This document shows, one piece after another, positions 284-18,081 of a stretch of DNA of 25,647 nucleotides. The first letter of the stretch is position 1. Each line of letters starts with the position of its first letter. Source of the stretch: Kiritimatiellota bacterium (GTDB taxonomy: Bacteria; Verrucomicrobiota; Kiritimatiellia; Kiritimatiellales; Tichowtungiaceae); the NCBI GenBank assembly GCA_014381785.1, contig JACNKZ010000074.1, positions 1-25,647 on the forward strand, given 5' to 3'. Position numbers and translations under genes: made by a program. The notes under the pieces were generated by a model. The model searched no databases. It was not told where the DNA came from and was given only the letters and a program-made list of their open reading frames with translations.

Positions 284-405
284 GCGAGGGGTAGGGCGAC
301 GCCTCCGGCGGAGCCGCCTTTTCAGTTCTGCGGCTCACCGGGACGGTTCGCCCCACCTTAAGAATGCGCCTTGAAAAAGGGAGGGTTTGGCTCTACAAAG
401 CGGGC

Positions 406-597
406 ATGACAACGGTAAAAGAAATCGAAAAAGCGGTTGAGCATCTTCCGCCCAAAGATTTGAACCAGTTCCGCAACTGGTTCGAGGCATTTGAGGCCGC
501 CGCATGGGATCGGCAGTTGGAGGCTGATGCCCGTAGTGGACGCCTTGACCTTCTGGCGAATGAAGCCCGCGAAGAATACAGACGAGTAATTCGCTGA
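406..597 (+). CDS. Small conserved hypothetical protein, weakly antitoxin-like (addiction-module-component style), no toxin partner nearby
   Basis: ORF 364..597. The internal ATG at 406 gives MTTVKEIEKAVEHLPPKDLNQFRNWFEAFEAAAWDRQLEADARSGRLDLLANEAREEYR. The pattern LPxxxxxxFRxWFxxF..WDxQxExD..xGxLD recalls small antitoxin-like proteins. The functional call is from memory only. Confidence 0.4.
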   Translation: MTTVKEIEKAVEHLPPKDLNQFRNWFEAFEAAAWDRQLEADARSGRLDLLANEAREEYRRVIR

Positions 598-705: not shown

Positions 706-2637
706 CTAAAAAAATCCACGGTCTTTTTGCAAGAGATGCGGAGGGATTTCGTTGATGAAGCGGGAGGGCTCTAAAAAGATGATGCCGCCGTCGCGCTGGC
801 GGCGCACCTCGGGGCTGCACAGGAAGAGGTGGTCTTCGGCGCGGGTGACGGCGACGTAGAACAGCCGTCGCTCTTCGGAATCCCCCGCCTCTTCGATCGA
901 TTTGGTGCCCGGGAACATGCTCTCACACAGGAAGAGCACAAAGACCGCCTTGAACTCCAGTCCTTTGGCCTGATGAATGGTGCTGAGGCGCAGGGAGTCG
1001 GCCGGATCGGTGTCGGTTCGTGTGTCGCCCTCCGCATCGAGGTTCGAGAGCAGGGCGATTTCGCTGAGAAACGCCTCGGTGGTTTCAAATTTGGTGGTGA
1101 AGTCGATCAGTCCATCGAGATCTTCGGCGCGGTATTTGGAGTTATCAAAATTTTCTACCATGAACTCGTTGTAGAACGCCTTATTGAAACGGTAGACGAT
1201 TTCGCCGGGGTCGGCGTCGAGGGTTTCTTCGCGGTAAGCCAGAAAGACCGGCTCGATTTTTTTCCATTCGTCGCGCGCGGCGGCGGGCAGGGCGGTTTCA
1301 ACCTGCATACAGACCTCTTTGCGCTGCAGATTCACCCGTCCGCCGAGGGTTCGGAAAATTTTGAGCGAGGTCTTTTTTCCAACCTTTGGAAAAAGTTCCA
1401 ACAGACGGGTGAAGGCCAGCTCGTCGCCGGGGTTGACCAGGATCCGCAGTACGGTGCAGACGTCTTTGATGTGCGCCTGCTCGAAGAACCGGACGCCGGA
1501 GGTGACGATGTAGGGCATGGACGCGCGCGCCAGCTCCATCTGCAGTTCCATGGCGTGGAAGTGGGAGCGGTAGAGCACGCACATGTCCGAAGGGGAAATC
1601 CCTTCGCGGCGGAGCATCTGTACCTTTTCGATAATGTAGCGCGCCTGCGCACTGCCGTCGCGCAGTCCGGCGAGGACGGGATAGGCCCCTTCCGGACGGA
1701 CGGCTTTGAGTTCTTTCTGGAACTGGTCGGGATTGCCGGCAATCGCCGCGTTGGCGACCTCGAGGATTTCCGGCGTGGAGCGATAGTTGATCTGCAGCTT
1801 AAATTCGCGTGTGCCGGGATAGTGGCGTCCGAAGTCGAGAAAGTTGCGGAAGTCGGCGCCGCGCCACGAGTAGATGCTCTGGAAGTCGTCCCCCACCACC
1901 ATGATGTTCTGATGGACCTTGGCGAGCAGCTCCACCATGCGCGCCTGAATGGCGTTGGTGTCCTGATACTCATCGACAAGGATGTATTGAAACTCCTCCT
2001 GATAGAACCGCAGGATCTGTTCGTTTTGTTCGAGCAGCTTCAGGGCGTAGGAAAGGAGATCGTCGAAGTCCATCGCGTTCTGCTCTTTCTTGCGCTTCTG
2101 ATAGAGGTCGTGCACGCGGATGACATCTTCGAAGTCCACCTCGGTGTGTTCGAAGCGCTCAGCCAGCCCGTCGGCCAGATCGCCCATCTGTCCGCCGATG
2201 ACGCCGAAGATGCTTTGCAGCACCTGCGGCTTGGGAAAATGCTTTTTATCCATCTTCAGGTCGTCCGCGCAGGATCCGAGCAGCTTTTTGGAGTCGTCGG
2301 CGTCGAGGATGGCGAAGTTGTTGTCGAAGCCGACGCGCGGCGCGTGCGAGCGCAGGATGCGGTTGGCGAAGCGGTGGAATGTGCCGCTATAGCCGCTGGT
2401 GAAGGGGCGGTTGACCAGCCGTTCCGCGCGCTCAAGCATTTCGCCGGCGGCTTTGTTCGTGAAGGTCAGCAGTAGCATGTTGCGCGGGTCGAGCCCGCGC
2501 TCTTTCACCAGCCAGGCCAGACGATAGACCAGCGTGCGGGTTTTACCGGTTCCGGCCGCGGCAATGACGAGCGCCGGCCCGTCCGGAGCGGTGACGGCGG
2601 CGTACTGCTCTTCGTTGAGTTCCTTTTTGAAATTCAT
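706..2637 (-). CDS. UvrD/PcrA/Rep-family superfamily 1 ATP-dependent DNA helicase (643 aa)
   Basis: Motif I AAAGTGKT, motif II VDEYQDTN, motif III VGDDFQSIYSWRGA, NYRS, TIHQAKGLEF and YVAVTRAEDHL are all present in canonical order. Confidence 0.93.
   Translation of the reverse strand: MNFKKELNEEQYAAVTAPDGPALVIAAAGTGKTRTLVYRLAWLVKERGLDPRNMLLLTFTNKAAGEMLERAERLVNRPFTSGYSGTFHRFANRILRSHAPRVGFDNNFAILDADDSKKLLGSCADDLKMDKKHFPKPQVLQSIFGVIGGQMGDLADGLAERFEHTEVDFEDVIRVHDLYQKRKKEQNAMDFDDLLSYALKLLEQNEQILRFYQEEFQYILVDEYQDTNAIQARMVELLAKVHQNIMVVGDDFQSIYSWRGADFRNFLDFGRHYPGTREFKLQINYRSTPEILEVANAAIAGNPDQFQKELKAVRPEGAYPVLAGLRDGSAQARYIIEKVQMLRREGISPSDMCVLYRSHFHAMELQMELARASMPYIVTSGVRFFEQAHIKDVCTVLRILVNPGDELAFTRLLELFPKVGKKTSLKIFRTLGGRVNLQRKEVCMQVETALPAAARDEWKKIEPVFLAYREETLDADPGEIVYRFNKAFYNEFMVENFDNSKYRAEDLDGLIDFTTKFETTEAFLSEIALLSNLDAEGDTRTDTDPADSLRLSTIHQAKGLEFKAVFVLFLCESMFPGTKSIEEAGDSEERRLFYVAVTRAEDHLFLCSPEVRRQRDGGIIFLEPSRFINEIPPHLLQKDRGFF
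1377..1391. repeat. Iterated palindrome copy inside the helicase CDS
   Basis: TTTTTTCCAACCTTTGGAAAAAG, perfect with T/A-run flanks. Translated on the minus strand as FPKVGKK. Confidence 0.9.
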
Positions 2638-2741
2638 AGACCGCCGATTAAATCACGGCCGGTTGACGGGGGAAACTTTAAACTACTGAGTGAAAAGTCC
2701 CATACCTCTACAGGTACGGGATAATAATATTTATAATCATC

Positions 2742-2770
2742 TTGTGTTTATATAGTTATGAAAATATATC
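2742..2770 (+). promoter_or_regulatory. Candidate sigma70-like promoter in the AT-rich spacer upstream of the ArsR-like gene
   Basis: TTGTGT (2742-2747), 17-nt spacer, TATATC (2765-2770). It lies in a very AT-rich stretch (about 2700-2790) within otherwise GC-rich DNA. GGAGG at 2795-2799 follows, 5 nt before the ATG at 2805. The match is weak and many alternatives exist. Confidence 0.3.
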
Positions 2771-2804
2771 TCTGATGGTTTTAGCTTAAGCAATGGAGGT
2801 TGTT

Positions 2805-3350
2805 ATGGAACTGCGAAGAGGCCTTTGGAAAACGTGCCGAGTGATTGCTTCGGAAACCCGGTTGAAGATGTTGTGGTATCTTTTTGCAGAAGGGGAGTTA
2901 ACGGTGATGGAGTGCAGCCAGTTTATGAGATTGTCGCCGTCGAACACGAGCTTCCAGCTGAAGATGCTGCGCGAGTGCGGTCTGGTCATTTCGCGTCGGG
3001 AAAAGATGGAGGTATTTTGCCGGGCGGAGGCGAACAGCGCGGTGGAGTTTGCACCAGAGGTTCTGGAGGCGCTGAGGAGATGTCATGAGTTGGGTGTTTC
3101 TTTCAAAACATTGATTCGTCACGCGACAGCTTTTACTCATGAGCGACGGATCGAAATTTTGCGGGCACTGCGCGGGAGGTCATTGTCGGCGTTGGCGTTG
3201 CGGGATGCGACGGGAATGTCATCCTCTGCATTCTGTCGCCATCTGGATAAGCTAATACGGCGGGGTTACGTGAGGAATCTCGACAGGTCGTGTCGCATTG
3301 GGATCCCAGCGAATACGTTGGGCCGGACGCTGTTAAAGCTGGCGACTTGA
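2805..3350 (+). CDS. ArsR/SmtB-like transcriptional regulator with two tandem winged-HTH domains
   Basis: ORF 2793..3350. Start 2805 is preferred because of GGAGG 5 nt upstream. There are two ArsR-type segments. The first is RVIASETRLKMLWYLFAEGELTVMECSQFMRLSPSNTSFQLKMLRECGLVISRRE. The second is AFTHERRIEILRALRGRSLSALALRDATGMSSSAFCRHLDKLIRRGYV. GC content is visibly lower than in neighbouring genes. Confidence 0.7.
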   Translation: MELRRGLWKTCRVIASETRLKMLWYLFAEGELTVMECSQFMRLSPSNTSFQLKMLRECGLVISRREKMEVFCRAEANSAVEFAPEVLEALRRCHELGVSFKTLIRHATAFTHERRIEILRALRGRSLSALALRDATGMSSSAFCRHLDKLIRRGYVRNLDRSCRIGIPANTLGRTLLKLAT

Positions 3351-3364
3351 TAGGCGAGTTGTTT

Positions 3365-3462
3365 TTCCAATGCTTGGAAAAAAGACTGAGGCTAAAAATT
3401 TTTGAGCACCTGTTTTTCCAATGTTTGGAAGCAGGGATCGGTTATTTTTCCAAACATTGGAA
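3365..3462. repeat. Cluster of three perfect iterated palindromes between the ArsR-like and yihY 3' ends
   Basis: 3365-3379 (TGC), 3416-3430 (TGT), 3448-3462 (ACA). Centre spacings are 51 and 32 bp. Confidence 0.95.
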
Positions 3463-4687
3463 AATCGGCGGCCAGACCGAGCGCGGTGGGTGCGGTGCCG
3501 TCGTCGAGAATCGCGTCGGTGATGTCGCGGGCGGTGATGTTGAGCGGGTTGCGCAGCAGCGTGTAGCAGGAGGGGTTTTCGGCCGATTCCGCCACTAACC
3601 CGGCTTGCGCCAGCGTATGGATGACGTCGTTGATGAGGCGAATGGGGATTCGGTTTTCTATTCCGTAGGCGATGGTGTCGAACGGCGGTTCGGGAGACTC
3701 AAATTTGTCGGTGATTTTTTTCATGAGCGCGACGGCGAGGCAGAGGCGGGCGCGGGCGCTGGGCGTGACGGCGAGGCGTTCGCGGGCATAGGTGCCGGCG
3801 TTCTGAACCGAGAAGGCGACCTCCGCGCCCATCAGCAGAATCATCCAGCTCATCTGAACCCAGAAGAGGAAAATCGGGATGGCGGCCAGGGCCCCGTAGA
3901 TTTTGTTGTATTTGCTGACGCCGACGCCGAGTTTGATGATGCCGTACTGGAAGGCGATAGAGAGCAGCGCGGCGATGAATGCGCCGGTGAAGGCGGCGGA
4001 GAAGTTGACTTTGGTGTTGGGTAGAAAGAGATAAACGATGCTGAACGCGATCGCCATTGTGAAGACTGGGACCAGCTGCAGACCGATTTTCAAGAGGGGG
4101 CCCATCCATTCCAGTCGGCTGGCGAAGCCCATGATCACCGGCTGTCCGGAGGTGGCGACGATCATCAGAATTGGCGCCGCGACCATGATGACGATGTAGT
4201 TGCGGATTTTATCGATCAGGGTGCGCGATGTTTTTACTCCCCAGACCATATTGAATGTTTCTTCGATATTGCTGAGCATTTTGATGGCGATCCACAGGAA
4301 GAGGATGGTGCCGATCGAGCCGAGAGCTCCGGCGCTGGCTGATTCCACGGTGGTAATGATGTTGGTAATTGCCTGTTGGAAGGCGTCGGGCATTCCTGCT
4401 GTTTTTTCGAGCAGCATCTCACTCGCCCTTTCAAAGCCGAGTCCTTTGGCGATGGCGAAGAGAATGACGAGAAAGGGGACAAGCGCCATGACGGAAATAA
4501 AGGTGAGGGCCGAGGCGTGGATGGGGCACTTGTCTTCCTTGAAGCCTTTGATCACGAGCATACACACGCGCAGGAATTTGAGGCCGGCGGCGCGCGCTTT
4601 GGTCAGGGATGTCGGTTCCAACTCCCACAGGCCCTGTGAGAGAAAGGTTTTAATTGTGTCGCCGATTTCGCCTGCTTTTTTTTTCAT
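3392..4687 (-). CDS. YihY/virulence factor BrkB family inner-membrane protein with C-terminal soluble extension
   Basis: Start MKKKAGEIGDTIKTF at 4687, because the ORF-track start at 4762 adds an implausible leader. It has multiple TM segments and the family-typical ASALTFISVMALVPFLV. The last ~24 codons (3392-3465) are read through two copies of the iterated palindrome. Confidence 0.8.
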   Translation of the reverse strand: MKKKAGEIGDTIKTFLSQGLWELEPTSLTKARAAGLKFLRVCMLVIKGFKEDKCPIHASALTFISVMALVPFLVILFAIAKGLGFERASEMLLEKTAGMPDAFQQAITNIITTVESASAGALGSIGTILFLWIAIKMLSNIEETFNMVWGVKTSRTLIDKIRNYIVIMVAAPILMIVATSGQPVIMGFASRLEWMGPLLKIGLQLVPVFTMAIAFSIVYLFLPNTKVNFSAAFTGAFIAALLSIAFQYGIIKLGVGVSKYNKIYGALAAIPIFLFWVQMSWMILLMGAEVAFSVQNAGTYARERLAVTPSARARLCLAVALMKKITDKFESPEPPFDTIAYGIENRIPIRLINDVIHTLAQAGLVAESAENPSCYTLLRNPLNITARDITDAILDDGTAPTALGLAADFPMFGKITDPCFQTLEKQVLKNF

Positions 4688-5895: not shown

Positions 5896-6438
5896 TTATT
5901 TGGCTGTAAGTAGATTTTTGTTCTGCACAAAGTAGTGCCAGCCGCTCCAGATGGAGAGCGCGGTGACGAACAGCCCGCCCCACCAGAGGATCGTACCGCA
6001 TTTGTCCAAACAGTGGAAAACGCCGGCGAACAGAACAACGAGGATGAAGACCATCTGCCAGATGGTCTTGTGTTTCCCCCAGATGCCCGCAGCCAGCACG
6101 ATGCCTTTGTCGGCGGCGAGCAGCCGCAGACCGGTCACCATAAATTCACGGGAGAGAATCAGCGTGACCATCCAGGCGGGCATAACCCCCAACTCGATAA
6201 ACCCGATGAAGGCGGCGGCGGTCAGGACTTTGTCGGCCAGCGGATCCATCAGCTTGCCGAAATCGGTGCAGCCGTAAACGGTCCGGGCGAGGTGCCCGTC
6301 AAGCGCGTCGGTGAGCGCGGCGAGCGCAAAAACCACCAGCGCCAGAATCATGGAGCCGGGGAAGGTGATGCTGAGGCAGACCATTAAAAGAGCGGCCATG
6401 CCGAAACGGCTGAGGGTAAGAATGTTGGGTGGGTTCAT
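5896..6438 (-). CDS. pgsA: CDP-diacylglycerol--glycerol-3-phosphate 3-phosphatidyltransferase (CDP-alcohol phosphatidyltransferase family)
   Basis: CDP-alcohol motif DALDGHLARTVYGCTDFGKLMDPLADKV (D-G-x2-A-R-x8-G-x3-D-x3-D). 180 aa with multiple TM segments. Confidence 0.88.
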   Translation of the reverse strand: MNPPNILTLSRFGMAALLMVCLSITFPGSMILALVVFALAALTDALDGHLARTVYGCTDFGKLMDPLADKVLTAAAFIGFIELGVMPAWMVTLILSREFMVTGLRLLAADKGIVLAAGIWGKHKTIWQMVFILVVLFAGVFHCLDKCGTILWWGGLFVTALSIWSGWHYFVQNKNLLTAK

Positions 6439-15251: not shown

Positions 15252-16307
15252 CTAGCCTGCCCAGTTTTCGAGGGTGAGGTTGGGGTTCACATCCTCCGGT
15301 GCGGCGAAGGGCAGGCCCGCCCGCAGTTTGATGGCGGCGGCCCCGGCGATCATCGCGGCGTTATCGGTGCAAAATTTTGACGTTGAGAGCTTGAGCGGAA
15401 TGCCGGTTTTTTCGGAGAGCACGGCGAGCTTTGCGCGCAGGGGTTTATTGAGCGACACACCGCCGGCGCAGGAAAAGGAGGCGCACTTATATTTTTTGAG
15501 CGCGCGCTCCATTCGTCGGGTCAGCGCATCGGCGACTGCTTCCTGATAGCTGGCGGTCACATCCCGCTTTTCATTCTCGTCTTCGAGTGCGGATGGGTTT
15601 TTCTGCAGGTAGTAGAGCAGGGAGGTTTTCAGGCCGCTGAAGCTGAAGCAGAGTTTGCGGTCGTAGGAGTAGGTCCATTCACCGCCAGGGTTGTCGAGTC
15701 CGCGCGGGAAACGCACCGCGTTCGGGTTGCCGCCCTCGGCGAACTTCTGAATGACCGGCCCGCCGGGGTAGCCGAGGCCGAGCAGGGTGGCGCCTTTATC
15801 GAGCGCTTCGCCGGCAGCATCGTCGATGGTCTGGCCGATCACTTCGTAGTGTCCCGGTTCTTTCATGTAAACCAGACGGGTATCCCCGCCGGAAACCAGC
15901 AGGGTCAGCATAGGAAAAGAGCCTTCGAGCACGGGCGGCTCGTCGCCGAGGAAGACGGAGTAGATGTGCCCCTCGTGGTGATTCACGCCCATGATCGGCA
16001 GGTTGAGTCGCAGGGAGAGTGCGCGCGCGGCGGAGTAGCCGATCAGCAGTGAGCTGGACAGCCCGGGTCCGTAAGTAACGGCGATGCCGTCGAGATCGTC
16101 GAAGGTGCAGTTTGCCTCAGCCAGCGCCTGCTCAATAATTCCCGGCATTTTTTTGACATGGTCACGCGAGGCGATTTCCGGCACCACCCCGCCGTACGGT
16201 GCGTGCTTGGCGATTTGCGAGTAGATGGCGTTGGCCTTCACGGCACCATCTTTCACCACGGCCACGGCGGTTTCATCACACGAGCTTTCAATTCCTAACA
16301 GGATCAT
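15252..16307 (-). CDS. tsaD: tRNA N6-adenosine threonylcarbamoyltransferase TsaD
   Basis: MILLGIESSCDETAVAVV N-terminus, GVNHHEGH metal motif, and the full-length Kae1/TsaD pattern. ATG at 16307 is preferred over the GTG at 16319. Confidence 0.93.
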   Translation of the reverse strand: MILLGIESSCDETAVAVVKDGAVKANAIYSQIAKHAPYGGVVPEIASRDHVKKMPGIIEQALAEANCTFDDLDGIAVTYGPGLSSSLLIGYSAARALSLRLNLPIMGVNHHEGHIYSVFLGDEPPVLEGSFPMLTLLVSGGDTRLVYMKEPGHYEVIGQTIDDAAGEALDKGATLLGLGYPGGPVIQKFAEGGNPNAVRFPRGLDNPGGEWTYSYDRKLCFSFSGLKTSLLYYLQKNPSALEDENEKRDVTASYQEAVADALTRRMERALKKYKCASFSCAGGVSLNKPLRAKLAVLSEKTGIPLKLSTSKFCTDNAAMIAGAAAIKLRAGLPFAAPEDVNPNLTLENWAG

Positions 16308-16315
16308 ATTTTTAA

Positions 16316-16342
16316 CCACGAATGCACACGAATTTACACGAA
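16316..16342. repeat. Left terminal inverted repeat of the GxxExxY cassette (three ~10-bp ACACGAAT units)
   Basis: CCACGAATGCACACGAATTTACACGAA matches the reverse complement of 16719-16745 at 24 of 27 positions. Confidence 0.8.
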
Positions 16343-16352
16343 AGAGGGCAGA

Positions 16353-16739
16353 TTAGAGGACGATGCGTTCGTATTCCAGCTTTGCGTGTTTGAAGTTGAT
16401 AATGATGCCAAGTCGCAAGCCGATTATCCGTAGATAATTTAGCATTTGGCCTCGTTCATGATCGGTGATTTTATCGATAACTTTTGTATCGATGACGATT
16501 TTATCAAAAGCAATTAGATCGGGGATAAATGTACCTATCTTTTCCTGGCGGTAGAGAATCGGGAATTCCCGTTGTTGTTCGTAGGGGATGTTGTTGTGAC
16601 GAAACGCAATGGTCAGCGCATTCTCATAGGGCTTTTCATGATACCCGTGTCCCACTTCCTTGAGCACATCCAGCGCGCGCCCAATGATTTGATAGCTTTC
16701 CTCTTTAAAGAGAATCTGTTCGTGTGGATTCGTGTCCAT
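16353..16739 (-). CDS. GxxExxY family protein (PD-(D/E)XK nuclease-like fold)
   Basis: GHGYHEKPYENAL (G-x2-E-x2-Y), IPDLIAFDKIVIDTKV and QMLNYLRIIGLRLGIIINF fit the GxxExxY family. The ATG at 16739 gives 128 aa, the typical family size. Confidence 0.85.
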   Translation of the reverse strand: MDTNPHEQILFKEESYQIIGRALDVLKEVGHGYHEKPYENALTIAFRHNNIPYEQQREFPILYRQEKIGTFIPDLIAFDKIVIDTKVIDKITDHERGQMLNYLRIIGLRLGIIINFKHAKLEYERIVL

Positions 16740-16745
16740 TCGTGG
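16719..16745. repeat. Right terminal inverted repeat of the GxxExxY cassette, overlapping its start codon
   Basis: TTCGTGTGGATTCGTGTCCATTCGTGG has 10-bp periodicity. The start codon (16739-16737, minus strand) lies inside the repeat and encodes MDTNPHE. Confidence 0.8.
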
Positions 16746-16750
16746 TTTGG

Positions 16751-17992
16751 TTATTTTTTCCACTCCTGAGAGATAATCATTCCTTTGAGCGCGCCGATGG
16801 CGGCATCAAGCTGCACGTCACGGATTTCCGGCTCGGTGTTGAGCAGTTCGTCTGTTTCGTCAGGGTCCTGCGCTTCCTGGATGCGCAGCAGGAAGAGATC
16901 TTCGGCTGGCATGGTAACGGTGTGATCCGGCTCAATACCGTGGTCATGAATAACCCGCTCGCTCGGGGTGTAGTATTTGGCGGTGGTGAGTTTGACGGCG
17001 GAGCCGTCTTCGAGCGGCACAAGACTCTGCACGGAGCCTTTGCCGAAGGTTTTTTCGCCGACGAGCATCGCCCGTTTATGATCCTGCAGCGCGCCAGCCA
17101 CGATCTCAGAGGCGCTGGCGCTGCCGCCGTTGATAAGAATCACCATCGGGAAATTTTTGGCGGTGTAGTGGGTGAGCCCGTTCGATGTAAACCGCCGGTC
17201 TTCTGAGCCTGCTTCGCGGCCCTTGGTGAAGACAATTAACTTGCCGCGCGGCAGAAACAGTTCGGCCACTTCAGCGGCGGAGGTCAGCAGGCCGCCGGGA
17301 TTTCCGCGCAGGTCGAGCACCAGTCCGGTCAACCCTTCGTCGACGAGCGTTTTAAGCGCGGCTTTTAGATCGGTGCCGGTCGGCTCATTGAATTGGGTGA
17401 TGCGGATGTAGCCGATTCCATCCTGAACCATTTTGGCATCTTTCACGCTCGCGACATCAATTTCCTCGCGGGTGATGGTGATCTCTTCGACCTTATGAGT
17501 AGAAGGGCGCAGGGTTTTAAGTTGCACGTCGGTTCCGGGCTCGCCGCGCATCAGCTTCACGGAATCAGAGAGACTGAGCTCCCGGGTTTCCTGTTTATCG
17601 ACTTCCAGGATGACATCGCCGGATACAATGCCGGCGCGGAAACCGGGCGTGTCCTCCATTGGCGAAACGACGGTGAGCAGGCCGTCTTTCATGCTGATCA
17701 CGATGCCGATGCCGCCGAAGCTGCCGGCGGTGTCGTCTCTCATATCTTGGTATTCCTCCGCGTCCATGAACTGGCTGTAGGGATCGAGGTTTTGGAGCAT
17801 GCCGGTAAGTGCGTGGCGAATCAGGGCGTCATATCCCGCCTCATCCGTGTCGACATAGTTGCGGTGCACCTCCTCGAGAACCTTGGTGAACAGCCCGATT
17901 GCCTCGTAGGCATTGGTGAACGGCTCGGACGCGTGCGCGCCGCCGCTCAGGACGATCAGTAAAGACAGTGTGGCGAGAAGTTTACGTTTCAT
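16751..17992 (-). CDS. S41-family C-terminal processing peptidase (CtpA/Prc-like) with PDZ domain
   Basis: Signal peptide MKRKLLATLSLLIVLSGGAHA, FGGIGIV, PDZ segment, LDLRGNPGGLL, GGSASASEIVAGALQD, GEKTFGKGSVQ. Confidence 0.92.
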   Translation of the reverse strand: MKRKLLATLSLLIVLSGGAHASEPFTNAYEAIGLFTKVLEEVHRNYVDTDEAGYDALIRHALTGMLQNLDPYSQFMDAEEYQDMRDDTAGSFGGIGIVISMKDGLLTVVSPMEDTPGFRAGIVSGDVILEVDKQETRELSLSDSVKLMRGEPGTDVQLKTLRPSTHKVEEITITREEIDVASVKDAKMVQDGIGYIRITQFNEPTGTDLKAALKTLVDEGLTGLVLDLRGNPGGLLTSAAEVAELFLPRGKLIVFTKGREAGSEDRRFTSNGLTHYTAKNFPMVILINGGSASASEIVAGALQDHKRAMLVGEKTFGKGSVQSLVPLEDGSAVKLTTAKYYTPSERVIHDHGIEPDHTVTMPAEDLFLLRIQEAQDPDETDELLNTEPEIRDVQLDAAIGALKGMIISQEWKK

Positions 17993-18004
17993 AAGGCTAT
18001 CCCT

Positions 18005-18050
18005 TTCCAAAGGTTGGAAGATTTTTACCGTAAAGTTTCGAGCCTTGGAA
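18005..18050. repeat. Iterated palindrome pair between thiE and the S41 peptidase gene
   Basis: 18005-18019 TTCCAAAGGTTGGAA (perfect) lies 12 nt upstream of the S41 ATG. 18036-18050 TTTCGAGCCTTGGAA has 2 mismatches. Centres are 31 bp apart. Confidence 0.85.
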
Positions 18051-18081
18051 GCCATAGCATGGCGGCAAGCGGGTTTTTCTG

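Follow-up and report, generated by a model that had tools for sequence, protein, structure and literature searches.

The stretch of DNA analysed here (the window) comprises 25,647 nt of contig JACNKZ010000074.1 from a Kiritimatiellota bacterium. We examined a 434-bp unit within it (16314-16747), in which a small gene for a GxxExxY protein is bracketed by inverted repeats, here called arms. On its upstream side lies a ctpA-like gene for an S41 C-terminal processing peptidase (16751-18055, minus strand; stop codon 16751-16753). Downstream is tsaD (15252-16307, minus strand; ATG 16305-16307), whose product shares 87% identity with that of Tichowtungia aerotolerans, a member of the Kiritimatiellota. 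The GxxExxY gene (16353-16739, minus strand) encodes a protein of 128 amino acids with a predicted PD-(D/E)XK nuclease fold and is the only open reading frame (ORF) between the arms. In gene orientation, the 5′ arm (16719-16747, minus strand) reads AACCACGAATGGACACGAATCCACACGAA; it carries three boxes 10 bp apart and holds the start codon of the gene (16737-16739). The 3′ arm (16314-16342) reads AACCACGAATGCACACGAATTTACACGAA on the plus strand and is located 10 nt past the GxxExxY stop codon and 6 nt ahead of the tsaD ATG.

An earlier interpretation made from the letters of the window (the sequence-only reading) had described 27-nt inverted repeats that match at 24 of 27 positions, each end being built from three units with a 10-bp periodicity. 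Both observations were reproduced, and the arms extend to 29 nt, with complementarity at 26 of 29 positions (90%) and 376 nt between them. Within ~660 nt, no other 29-nt inverted repeat in the window reaches 26 matches, and the best such repeat in 40 shuffles of the window reached 20-22 matches. Each arm consists of AA followed by three (A)CACGAAT boxes at exact 10-bp spacing, and all mismatches between the arms (three in the 27-nt core) fall in the 2-nt spacers between boxes. The string CACGAAT occurs five times in the window, four of them inside the cassette. Other details of the sequence-only reading also proved correct. Exactly one gene is bracketed, the repeat on the right provides its start codon and its first residues (MDTNPHE, residues 1-7, are the arm in translation), and the gap between the ctpA stop and the tsaD ATG is 443 nt. 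The distance of 8-9 nt given between arm and tsaD ATG is 8 nt for the arm core and 6 nt when the conserved AA is included. An alternative GTG start at 16763 would yield a protein of 136 amino acids, but gene calls and homologues of 128 amino acids favour the ATG. The ctpA-like gene is called as 413 amino acids on other contigs, and its true start is therefore probably near 17992. The G+C content of the cassettes is 41-45% compared to 57-62% in the flanks, so that the composition of the cassette is foreign.

Filled and empty ctpA-tsaD junctions

The cassette is present at the ctpA-tsaD junction of four lineages. Compared to the window, the GxxExxY proteins of the other three are 86% (L011), 78% (L012) and 70% (L014) identical, and the corresponding values for the flanking proteins are 81%, 72% and 70%. 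Empty junctions, which the sequence-only reading had suggested looking for, were found in close relatives. In L297/L298, which is 90% identical to the filled L011, the ctpA stop codon overlaps the tsaD ATG (AAATGA), and the empty L297 site reads CCAAATGATT. In L299, stop and start overlap as TAATG. Tichowtungia (L296) has a 109-nt spacer without arms (3392-3500), which has in common with the window no more than CCRAAC, the 6 nt behind the stop codon. Filled and empty lineages interleave on a tree of ctpA and TsaD.

Filled sites carry direct repeats of 7-11 nt that contain the stop/start overlap. The repeat on both sides is AAAAAATGAA(A)C in L014, AAAAT[AG]A in L011 and AAAAATA in the window, where it is found as TATTTTT at 16307-16313, including the first base of the tsaD ATG, and at 16752-16758, overlapping the ctpA stop codon. 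The sequence-only reading had seen no target-site duplication; these candidate copies, and the better-preserved repeats around the orthologous cassettes, call for a correction on this point. At filled sites, the ctpA stop and the tsaD start stay at the same codons. Given an ancestor in which the two overlapped, their preservation requires a duplication of the target. The direct repeats, the empty relatives, the conserved arms and the foreign G+C content together identify the unit as an insertion.

Because the same junction is filled in four diverged lineages and the GxxExxY identity tracks the host identity, the cassette appears to have been inherited here over a long time and largely vertically, with losses, rather than by recent mobility. 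The sequence-only reading had named conservation of the junction with the gene as evidence against a mobile origin. The cassette is indeed shared by four lineages with flanking proteins that are 70-81% identical, yet interleaved relatives are empty. One old insertion followed by losses would be the simplest history, since GxxExxY identity follows that of the host. In more distant relatives (TsaD 74% and 66% identical) ctpA is not beside tsaD, so the decision between gain and loss rests on this tracking, and the cassette may instead have been gained independently at ctpA-tsaD.

The GxxExxY gene is maintained by purifying selection, as the proportion of nonsynonymous differences (pN, 0.08-0.18) is far below that of synonymous differences (pS, 0.79-0.88) when the window is compared with L011, L012 and L014. 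In the same comparisons, pS of GxxExxY is well above that of the adjacent tsaD (0.51-0.56), while the amino-acid identities are similar. This excess may reflect replacement by gene conversion, a divergence of greater age, or codon constraint that is weak in AT-rich DNA.

Arms at other loci in bacteria and phages

At 10 independent loci from several phyla, a GxxExxY gene was found to have arms on both sides. Besides ctpA-tsaD, this set includes purM-purH (L015-L020), where no target-site duplication is evident, and a DUF6958 locus (L303-L312), where the cassette runs antisense to the genes on either side. Further loci are in metagenome-assembled genomes (MAGs) labelled as Verrucomicrobiota, Calditrichia, Anaerolineales, Nitrosomonas and others (L153, L193, L156, L174, L212 and L115). 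The last is a leuA/valS-like locus (P0086, L314, with L315), whose protein has an MDTD leader and whose boxes are of the CACGGAT type at all six positions. The class of box is uniform over all six boxes of an element, being GAAT in the window and GGAT in L314. On the protein tree the box class is clustered, with 6 changes compared to 10.7 with shuffled labels. The sequence-only reading had proposed to test whether paralogues are flanked by the same inverted repeats. This was the case at purM-purH, leuA-valS, the DUF6958 locus and in MAGs of several phyla, but the repeats also occur independently of the gene and most copies lack an ORF. No integrase or transposase was adjacent to the cassette in any locus examined.

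Some of these loci deviate in their arrangement. L314 (2912-2956) and L315 (1374-1408) encode an identical GxxExxY protein, but the 3′ arms of the two samples differ by one 10-nt box, one arm having three boxes and the second only two; the number of boxes therefore appears to change by slippage. L212 shows the order arm-ORF-arm-arm. In L115, from a Nitrosomonas MAG, the GxxExxY gene stands between complete hairpins instead of single arms. This contig also contains tandem hairpin arrays (58-545 and 1279-3410) whose arms are systematically asymmetric, with C[AG]CTAAT on the left and ATTCG[TC]G on the right, which are unable to pair at that position on either strand.

To collect arms irrespective of the gene, the pattern CCACGAATNNACACGAAT was used, in which the third box and the AA were left unspecified. 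The scan of IMG/VR gave 105 matches, and contigs from one genome per species gave at least 119 stretches among the matches listed. A consensus drawn from 296 arms reads ttAA-CCACGAAT-Gr-ACACGAAT-nn-ACACGAAT. Conservation in these arms is 72-98% for the unspecified third box and 64-98% for the third box together with the AA. Matches to the GAAT form continue into a third box in 73 of 105 cases and those to the GGAT form in 91 of 121, and AA precedes most of them. A scrambled control pattern resulted in 30 single matches, none with a third box. No arm was found in 400 kb of unrelated control loci, which were obtained from a TsaD metagenome scan that returned proteins only 42-56% identical, from unrelated bacteria.

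Labelled taxa with arms include Verrucomicrobiota/Opitutaceae, Planctomycetota, Kiritimatiellae, Acidobacteriota, Chloroflexota, Bacteroidota, Hydrogenedentota, Calditrichia, Nitrospinota, Nitrosomonas and Halofilum; several of the arm-bearing contigs come from the same MAGs. Among the matches listed there are ~70 convergent arm pairs, most of them 54-260 nt long and without an ORF, and GxxExxY is present in 7 of the 119 loci, always at arms. Hairpin forms without an ORF are ~10 times more common there than forms bearing GxxExxY. These hairpins are intergenic and usually located a few to 40 nt past a stop codon. Their loops are mutually unrelated in sequence, even within one contig (L125), and in L090 and L150 a hairpin of another box class is nested in the loop. 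A conserved leader peptide of seven codons in ORF-less arms was considered and rejected, as the frequency of stops after box 3 fits the base composition. In L111, L135 and L151, host genes end in codons encoded by the arm followed by a stop (...TSTTNKHE*, ...FFSHE* and ...TTNKHQ*). Since these genes run into the arm, insertions can apparently replace the C-terminal end of a host gene.

The arm-bearing contigs from IMG/VR encode tail and head proteins and are thus genuine tailed phages; they carry up to nine arms each (L021-L096 and L316-L405; for example L027/L046, L080, L083, L087 and L323). In three of these contigs (L053, L063 and L096), orthologous NlpC/P60-like tail proteins start at the ATG of an arm. 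A blastn search of cultured phages and plasmids returned nothing but one single arm in a Persicobacter replicon.

The conserved boxes and the GxxExxY protein

Conservation within the arms is concentrated in the boxes, whose positions are 84-100% conserved. Complementarity of the spacers is 0.373, compared to 0.357 ± 0.03 with shuffled partners, and positions 19-20 pair in only 18% of the hairpins. Neither strand is favoured by transition mismatches (P = 0.39 over 55 hairpins; 8 versus 7 in gene-oriented cassettes), and G-U-type mismatches show no overdispersion across the 55 hairpins. If an RNA stem were selected, covariation in the spacers and a preference for G-U on the transcribed strand would be expected; neither was observed. 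What is conserved in both arms is the 8-nt box and its phasing by one helical turn, a pattern that points to recognition of a specific sequence, in the simplest case by a DNA-binding protein.

The assignment of the protein to GxxExxY with a PD-(D/E)XK fold, made in the sequence-only reading, was confirmed by matches to PF13366 (E = 2e-31, 109.1 bits with a cut-off of 22, profile positions 2-117 of 117) and TIGR04256 (E = 1e-34, 119.4 bits with a cut-off of 35), with the catalytic residues intact. In 40 sequences, G32-x-x-E35-x-x-Y38, P73-D74 and D84-x-K86 are invariant. The AlphaFold2 model has a predicted local distance difference test score (pLDDT) of 90.7, and residues 1-6, which are encoded by the arm, are below 50. 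The best matches of the model in the Protein Data Bank (PDB) found by Foldseek are Cas4 SSO0001 (E = 7e-4), lambda exonuclease and LHK-Exo, with a template modelling score of ~0.5. The predicted structure thus resembles the PD-(D/E)XK cores of the Cas4, lambda-exonuclease and RecB types. The homing endonuclease I-Bth0305I is among the weak Foldseek matches (rank 45). A sequence-level search of the PDB with GxxExxY gave no match, and neither did the PADLOC profiles for anti-phage defence or the PHROGs phage families.

The association of protein and arm is also visible in homologues. M[DN]TN, which is the box in translation (ATG-RAC-ACG-AAT), opens ~85% of the 120 closest homologues (59-100% identity). 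In 150 representatives of clusters at 50% identity, this leader is still common within the 'HEKPYENAL' subfamily. PF13366 comprises 7,565 clusters at 50% identity (E ≤ 0.001). Some members (P0272, P0278, P0285, P0295 and others) are 250-390 amino acids long and contain two tandem GxxExxY domains.

Interpretation and relation to known systems

We interpret the 434-bp unit as an old selfish insertion, one copy of a widespread family of three-box elements, whose nuclease probably acts on the boxes; we assign this reading a probability of about 0.5. Of the mobile or selfish cassette proposed in the sequence-only reading, the selfish nature gains support from the arms found family-wide at unrelated loci, from the empty relatives and from the foreign composition, while recent mobility at ctpA-tsaD was not seen. 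That GxxExxY acts on the arms and that the hairpins are mobile is our inference. In layout and population biology, the closest analogy is REPIN/RAYT, in which many short intergenic palindromes occur together with a repeat-flanked RAYT gene that is kept at a single locus and inherited vertically (PMC3116915, PMC3337134, PMC5581495, bioRxiv 10.1101/2021.07.10.451892). Both systems consist of short intergenic palindromes in many copies and a protein gene flanked by inverted repeats. In both, the gene resides at one locus for a long time and is inherited vertically, and around the short repeats no duplication of the target is evident. However, the enzyme here has a PD-(D/E)XK fold and not that of an HUH/Y1 (IS200/IS605-like) transposase, so the cassette is not a member of REPIN/RAYT. 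Moreover, it carries three phased 8-nt boxes in place of a repetitive extragenic palindrome (REP) headed by GTAG/CGTC, and its box sequence is common to many phyla, whereas REPs are lineage-specific. In a further difference, GxxExxY proteins are described as occurring in large paralogous families.

In the simplest history, an ancestor of this Kiritimatiellota clade would have acquired the unit at the overlapping ctpA stop and tsaD start. Insertion would have duplicated the short target together with the overlap, so that both the stop and the start were kept. Mostly vertical inheritance under purifying selection would have followed, with losses in some lineages. In two lineages the loss would have left no scar, as expected if the palindrome stimulated recombination between the direct repeats on either side. 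The GxxExxY protein could recognise the phased boxes on one face of the DNA as a multimer, and the predicted nuclease might cut at or near the arms and thereby cause insertion, excision or copying of the gene-conversion type. The 30-bp arms would then double as recognition site and homology. Hairpins without an ORF would be non-autonomous partners served in trans, comparable to REPINs with their single-copy, vertically inherited RAYT. The ATG formed by box and spacer (CGA-ATG-RAC) starts the ORF and adds a disordered M[DN]TNxHE leader.

Several observations weigh against this interpretation. Target-site duplications around 46 ORF-less hairpins were not above a flank-swap control. Remnants of GxxExxY were not detected in the hairpin loops, where six-frame hmmsearch scores were no better than those of control DNA. 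We therefore rejected the loops as decayed GxxExxY genes, and the ORF-less hairpins are not demonstrably deletion derivatives. No GxxExxY was found in IMG/VR, either with hidden Markov models on arm-bearing loci or by a protein-pattern scan. In phages, single arms point to the downstream gene in 116 cases versus 52, and the ATG of the arm starts at least 14 phage ORFs; this orientation and use of the ATG suggest a role in expression. As for the cassettes, they can lie antisense to both neighbours (L303), and identical proteins present on 14-24 contigs each (P0001, P0007 and P0396) were always in a single genomic context, which gives no indication that they transposed recently. Linkage alone could explain why box class and protein clade are correlated. 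A large, more distant part of PF13366, seen in the 150 cluster representatives, has no box-encoded leader.

Alternatively, the arms could serve other machinery, as sites of recombination or cassette exchange or as operator arrays for a host or phage factor, and GxxExxY would be cargo, for example an addiction or defence nuclease that has landed in sites of this kind again and again. We consider this unlikely, but it is the strongest competitor. It would account for the many arms without a GxxExxY gene nearby, for phage contigs that have none at all and in which other ORFs start at arms, and for the unrelated loops even within contig L125. The arm-ORF-arm-arm order in L212 and the whole hairpins flanking the gene in L115 also resemble modular shuffling. 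On the other hand, GxxExxY is the sole recurrent gene enclosed by both arms among the bacterial matches listed, it is associated with arms in most of a large subfamily, and the box class covaries with the protein clade. Furthermore, no integrase or transposase was adjacent in the loci examined, and neither PADLOC nor PHROGs has a family that matches GxxExxY.

It is also conceivable that the arms act in RNA, as a hairpin for processing or for control of translation. Paired in the ctpA-GxxExxY-tsaD transcript, they would sequester the GxxExxY start and form a site of RNase III type, by which the flanking cistrons are uncoupled or stabilised, so that the unit would be a regulatory module and not mobile DNA. 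In both the minimum-free-energy and the centroid fold of 16300-16760 the terminal stem is closed (z = -3.3); such closure follows from any inverted repeat. The location of the GxxExxY start codon inside an arm, the position of the hairpins in intergenic spacers, mostly just past stop codons, and the sense-oriented single arms ahead of phage genes, some of which provide the ATG, would also fit. We nevertheless judge a function in RNA to be improbable. As described above, complementarity of the spacers is at chance level and an excess of G-U-type mismatches on the sense strand is lacking. A stem would not need an identical 8-mer from Nitrosomonas to Chloroflexota, single arms have no pairing partner, and the L303 cassette is antisense to its operon. 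Rfam covariance models gave chance-level matches only (E ≥ 0.64), all far below the gathering scores. Least probable by far is that there is no element at all, only an ordinary accessory gene, inherited vertically, with a lineage-specific terminator or attenuator as its flanking palindrome: the shared junction in four lineages with divergence tracking that of the host genes would suit it, but the same arms at unrelated loci and in other phyla already contradict it, as do the empty sister lineages with overlapping stop and start, the drop in G+C content inside the cassette and the flanking direct repeats.

A selfish insertion with its own nuclease shares features with several other systems. Bacterial miniature inverted-repeat transposable elements (MITEs), such as the Correia elements of Neisseria and the ERIC sequences of enterobacteria, are inverted-repeat elements of 50-250 bp that are intergenic or intercistronic and co-transcribed with operons. 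Their mobilising enzyme is not known or acts in trans, filled and empty sites occur between relatives, and copies within one genome have internal sequence in common and are usually flanked by a target-site duplication, TA or other. As in transposons with terminal inverted repeats and MITEs, the terminal repeats of the cassette are conserved at different loci and relatives have empty sites. Unlike in MITEs, only the 30-nt arms are shared, the loops are unrelated, no duplication is evident around the short forms, and a protein-coding version with a nuclease gene exists. Intervening sequences (IVSs) with an ORF in 23S rRNA (for example in Leptospira and Coxiella) hold an ORF of ~120 amino acids for a four-helix-bundle protein ('S23p') between inverted repeats that form a long stem. 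They are distributed patchily, also occur without an ORF, and have long been suspected of being mobile, although this has not been demonstrated. The cassette differs from them in its location in an operon spacer of mRNA rather than an rRNA helix and in its protein family.

Free-standing genes for PD-(D/E)XK homing endonucleases (I-Ssp6803I, I-Bth0305I) are likewise small nuclease-fold genes of patchy presence between conserved genes. The cassette, in contrast, has no intron or intein context, and its boundaries are long inverted repeats, which are also found where the gene is absent. The 'mobile regulatory cassettes' with promoter early stem-loops (PeSLs) of T4-type phages and the cassettes of integrons are single promoterless ORFs bounded by conserved repeats or stem-loops, which also act in expression and allow modular shuffling between genomes. 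Here, the sequence is different, inverted arms are present on both sides, and the elements occur in cellular genomes of many phyla. In contrast to integron cassettes, there is no attC architecture and no integrase in any neighbourhood examined. Literature on GxxExxY, PF13366, IVS proteins and the repeat strings contained no description of the repeat or of its link to GxxExxY, though coverage was incomplete, so that an earlier description is possible. We regard the family as palindromic selfish repeats with an associated enzyme gene, which we did not find described.

PF13366 is a large family with no known function. The physical fusion of a major GxxExxY subfamily to a conserved repeat provides a first concrete and testable hypothesis for a substrate, namely the boxes. 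More tentatively, and with the odds in our view somewhat against it, GxxExxY proteins could be the enzymes of an unrecognised class of mobile DNA that crosses phyla. In this case, a nuclease of ~125 amino acids would read phased arrays of 8-nt boxes (GAAT, GGAT and others) and mobilise or maintain its own cassette as well as thousands of ORF-less hairpins in bacteria and phages. That this would amount to a new class of enzymes for mobile DNA is a doubtful but real prospect; if true, bacterial mobile DNA would include a nuclease-based counterpart of REPIN-RAYT. It would also explain harmless insertions that split translationally coupled housekeeping genes and GxxExxY genes wedged into conserved operons. 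For annotation, the arm accounts for M[DN]TNxHE leaders, for spurious ORFs of the IRVHSW type and for '...TNKHE*' extensions at the C-terminus of host genes.

Related repeats were seen in additional places. Beside the arms, other hairpins are built from different short phased units (GGACGGAGGGCGGAG/TCCGTCATCCGTCA, AATCATAAATCATAAATCA, GTCAATAGTCAATAG, ACGCGAATGGACGCGAAT and CACAAAAAGCACAA), located at L030 ~11700, L066, L080, L035 ~7750, L088 ~2380 and L134 816-1237. Arms of tandem boxes may thus be a general architecture with many specificities. Tichowtungia aerotolerans (L296, CP047593.1) contains an intact single arm, CCACGAATGGACACGAATTCGCACGAA, at 6079-6105, 13 nt upstream of tilS, and this cultured organism therefore carries the repeat family. 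In the window, CCGCGGATGAACATGGATCAACGCGGA (629-655) and CCGCGAATCGTCACGAATGG (672-698), both on the minus strand, are single arms of related box classes in degenerate form; they lie just past the stop codon of a UvrD-like helicase gene (706-2637) and have no inverted partner. Both are weak, with a score of 17 of 23 each, and may be solo repeat ends. TTTCCAA follows each of them, and a small TTTCCAAGGGTTGGAAA hairpin follows the second. Beside these arms, an ORF of 77 amino acids (MRLEKGRVWLYKAGMTTVKEIEKAVEHLPP..., 364-597, plus strand) is convergent with the helicase gene.

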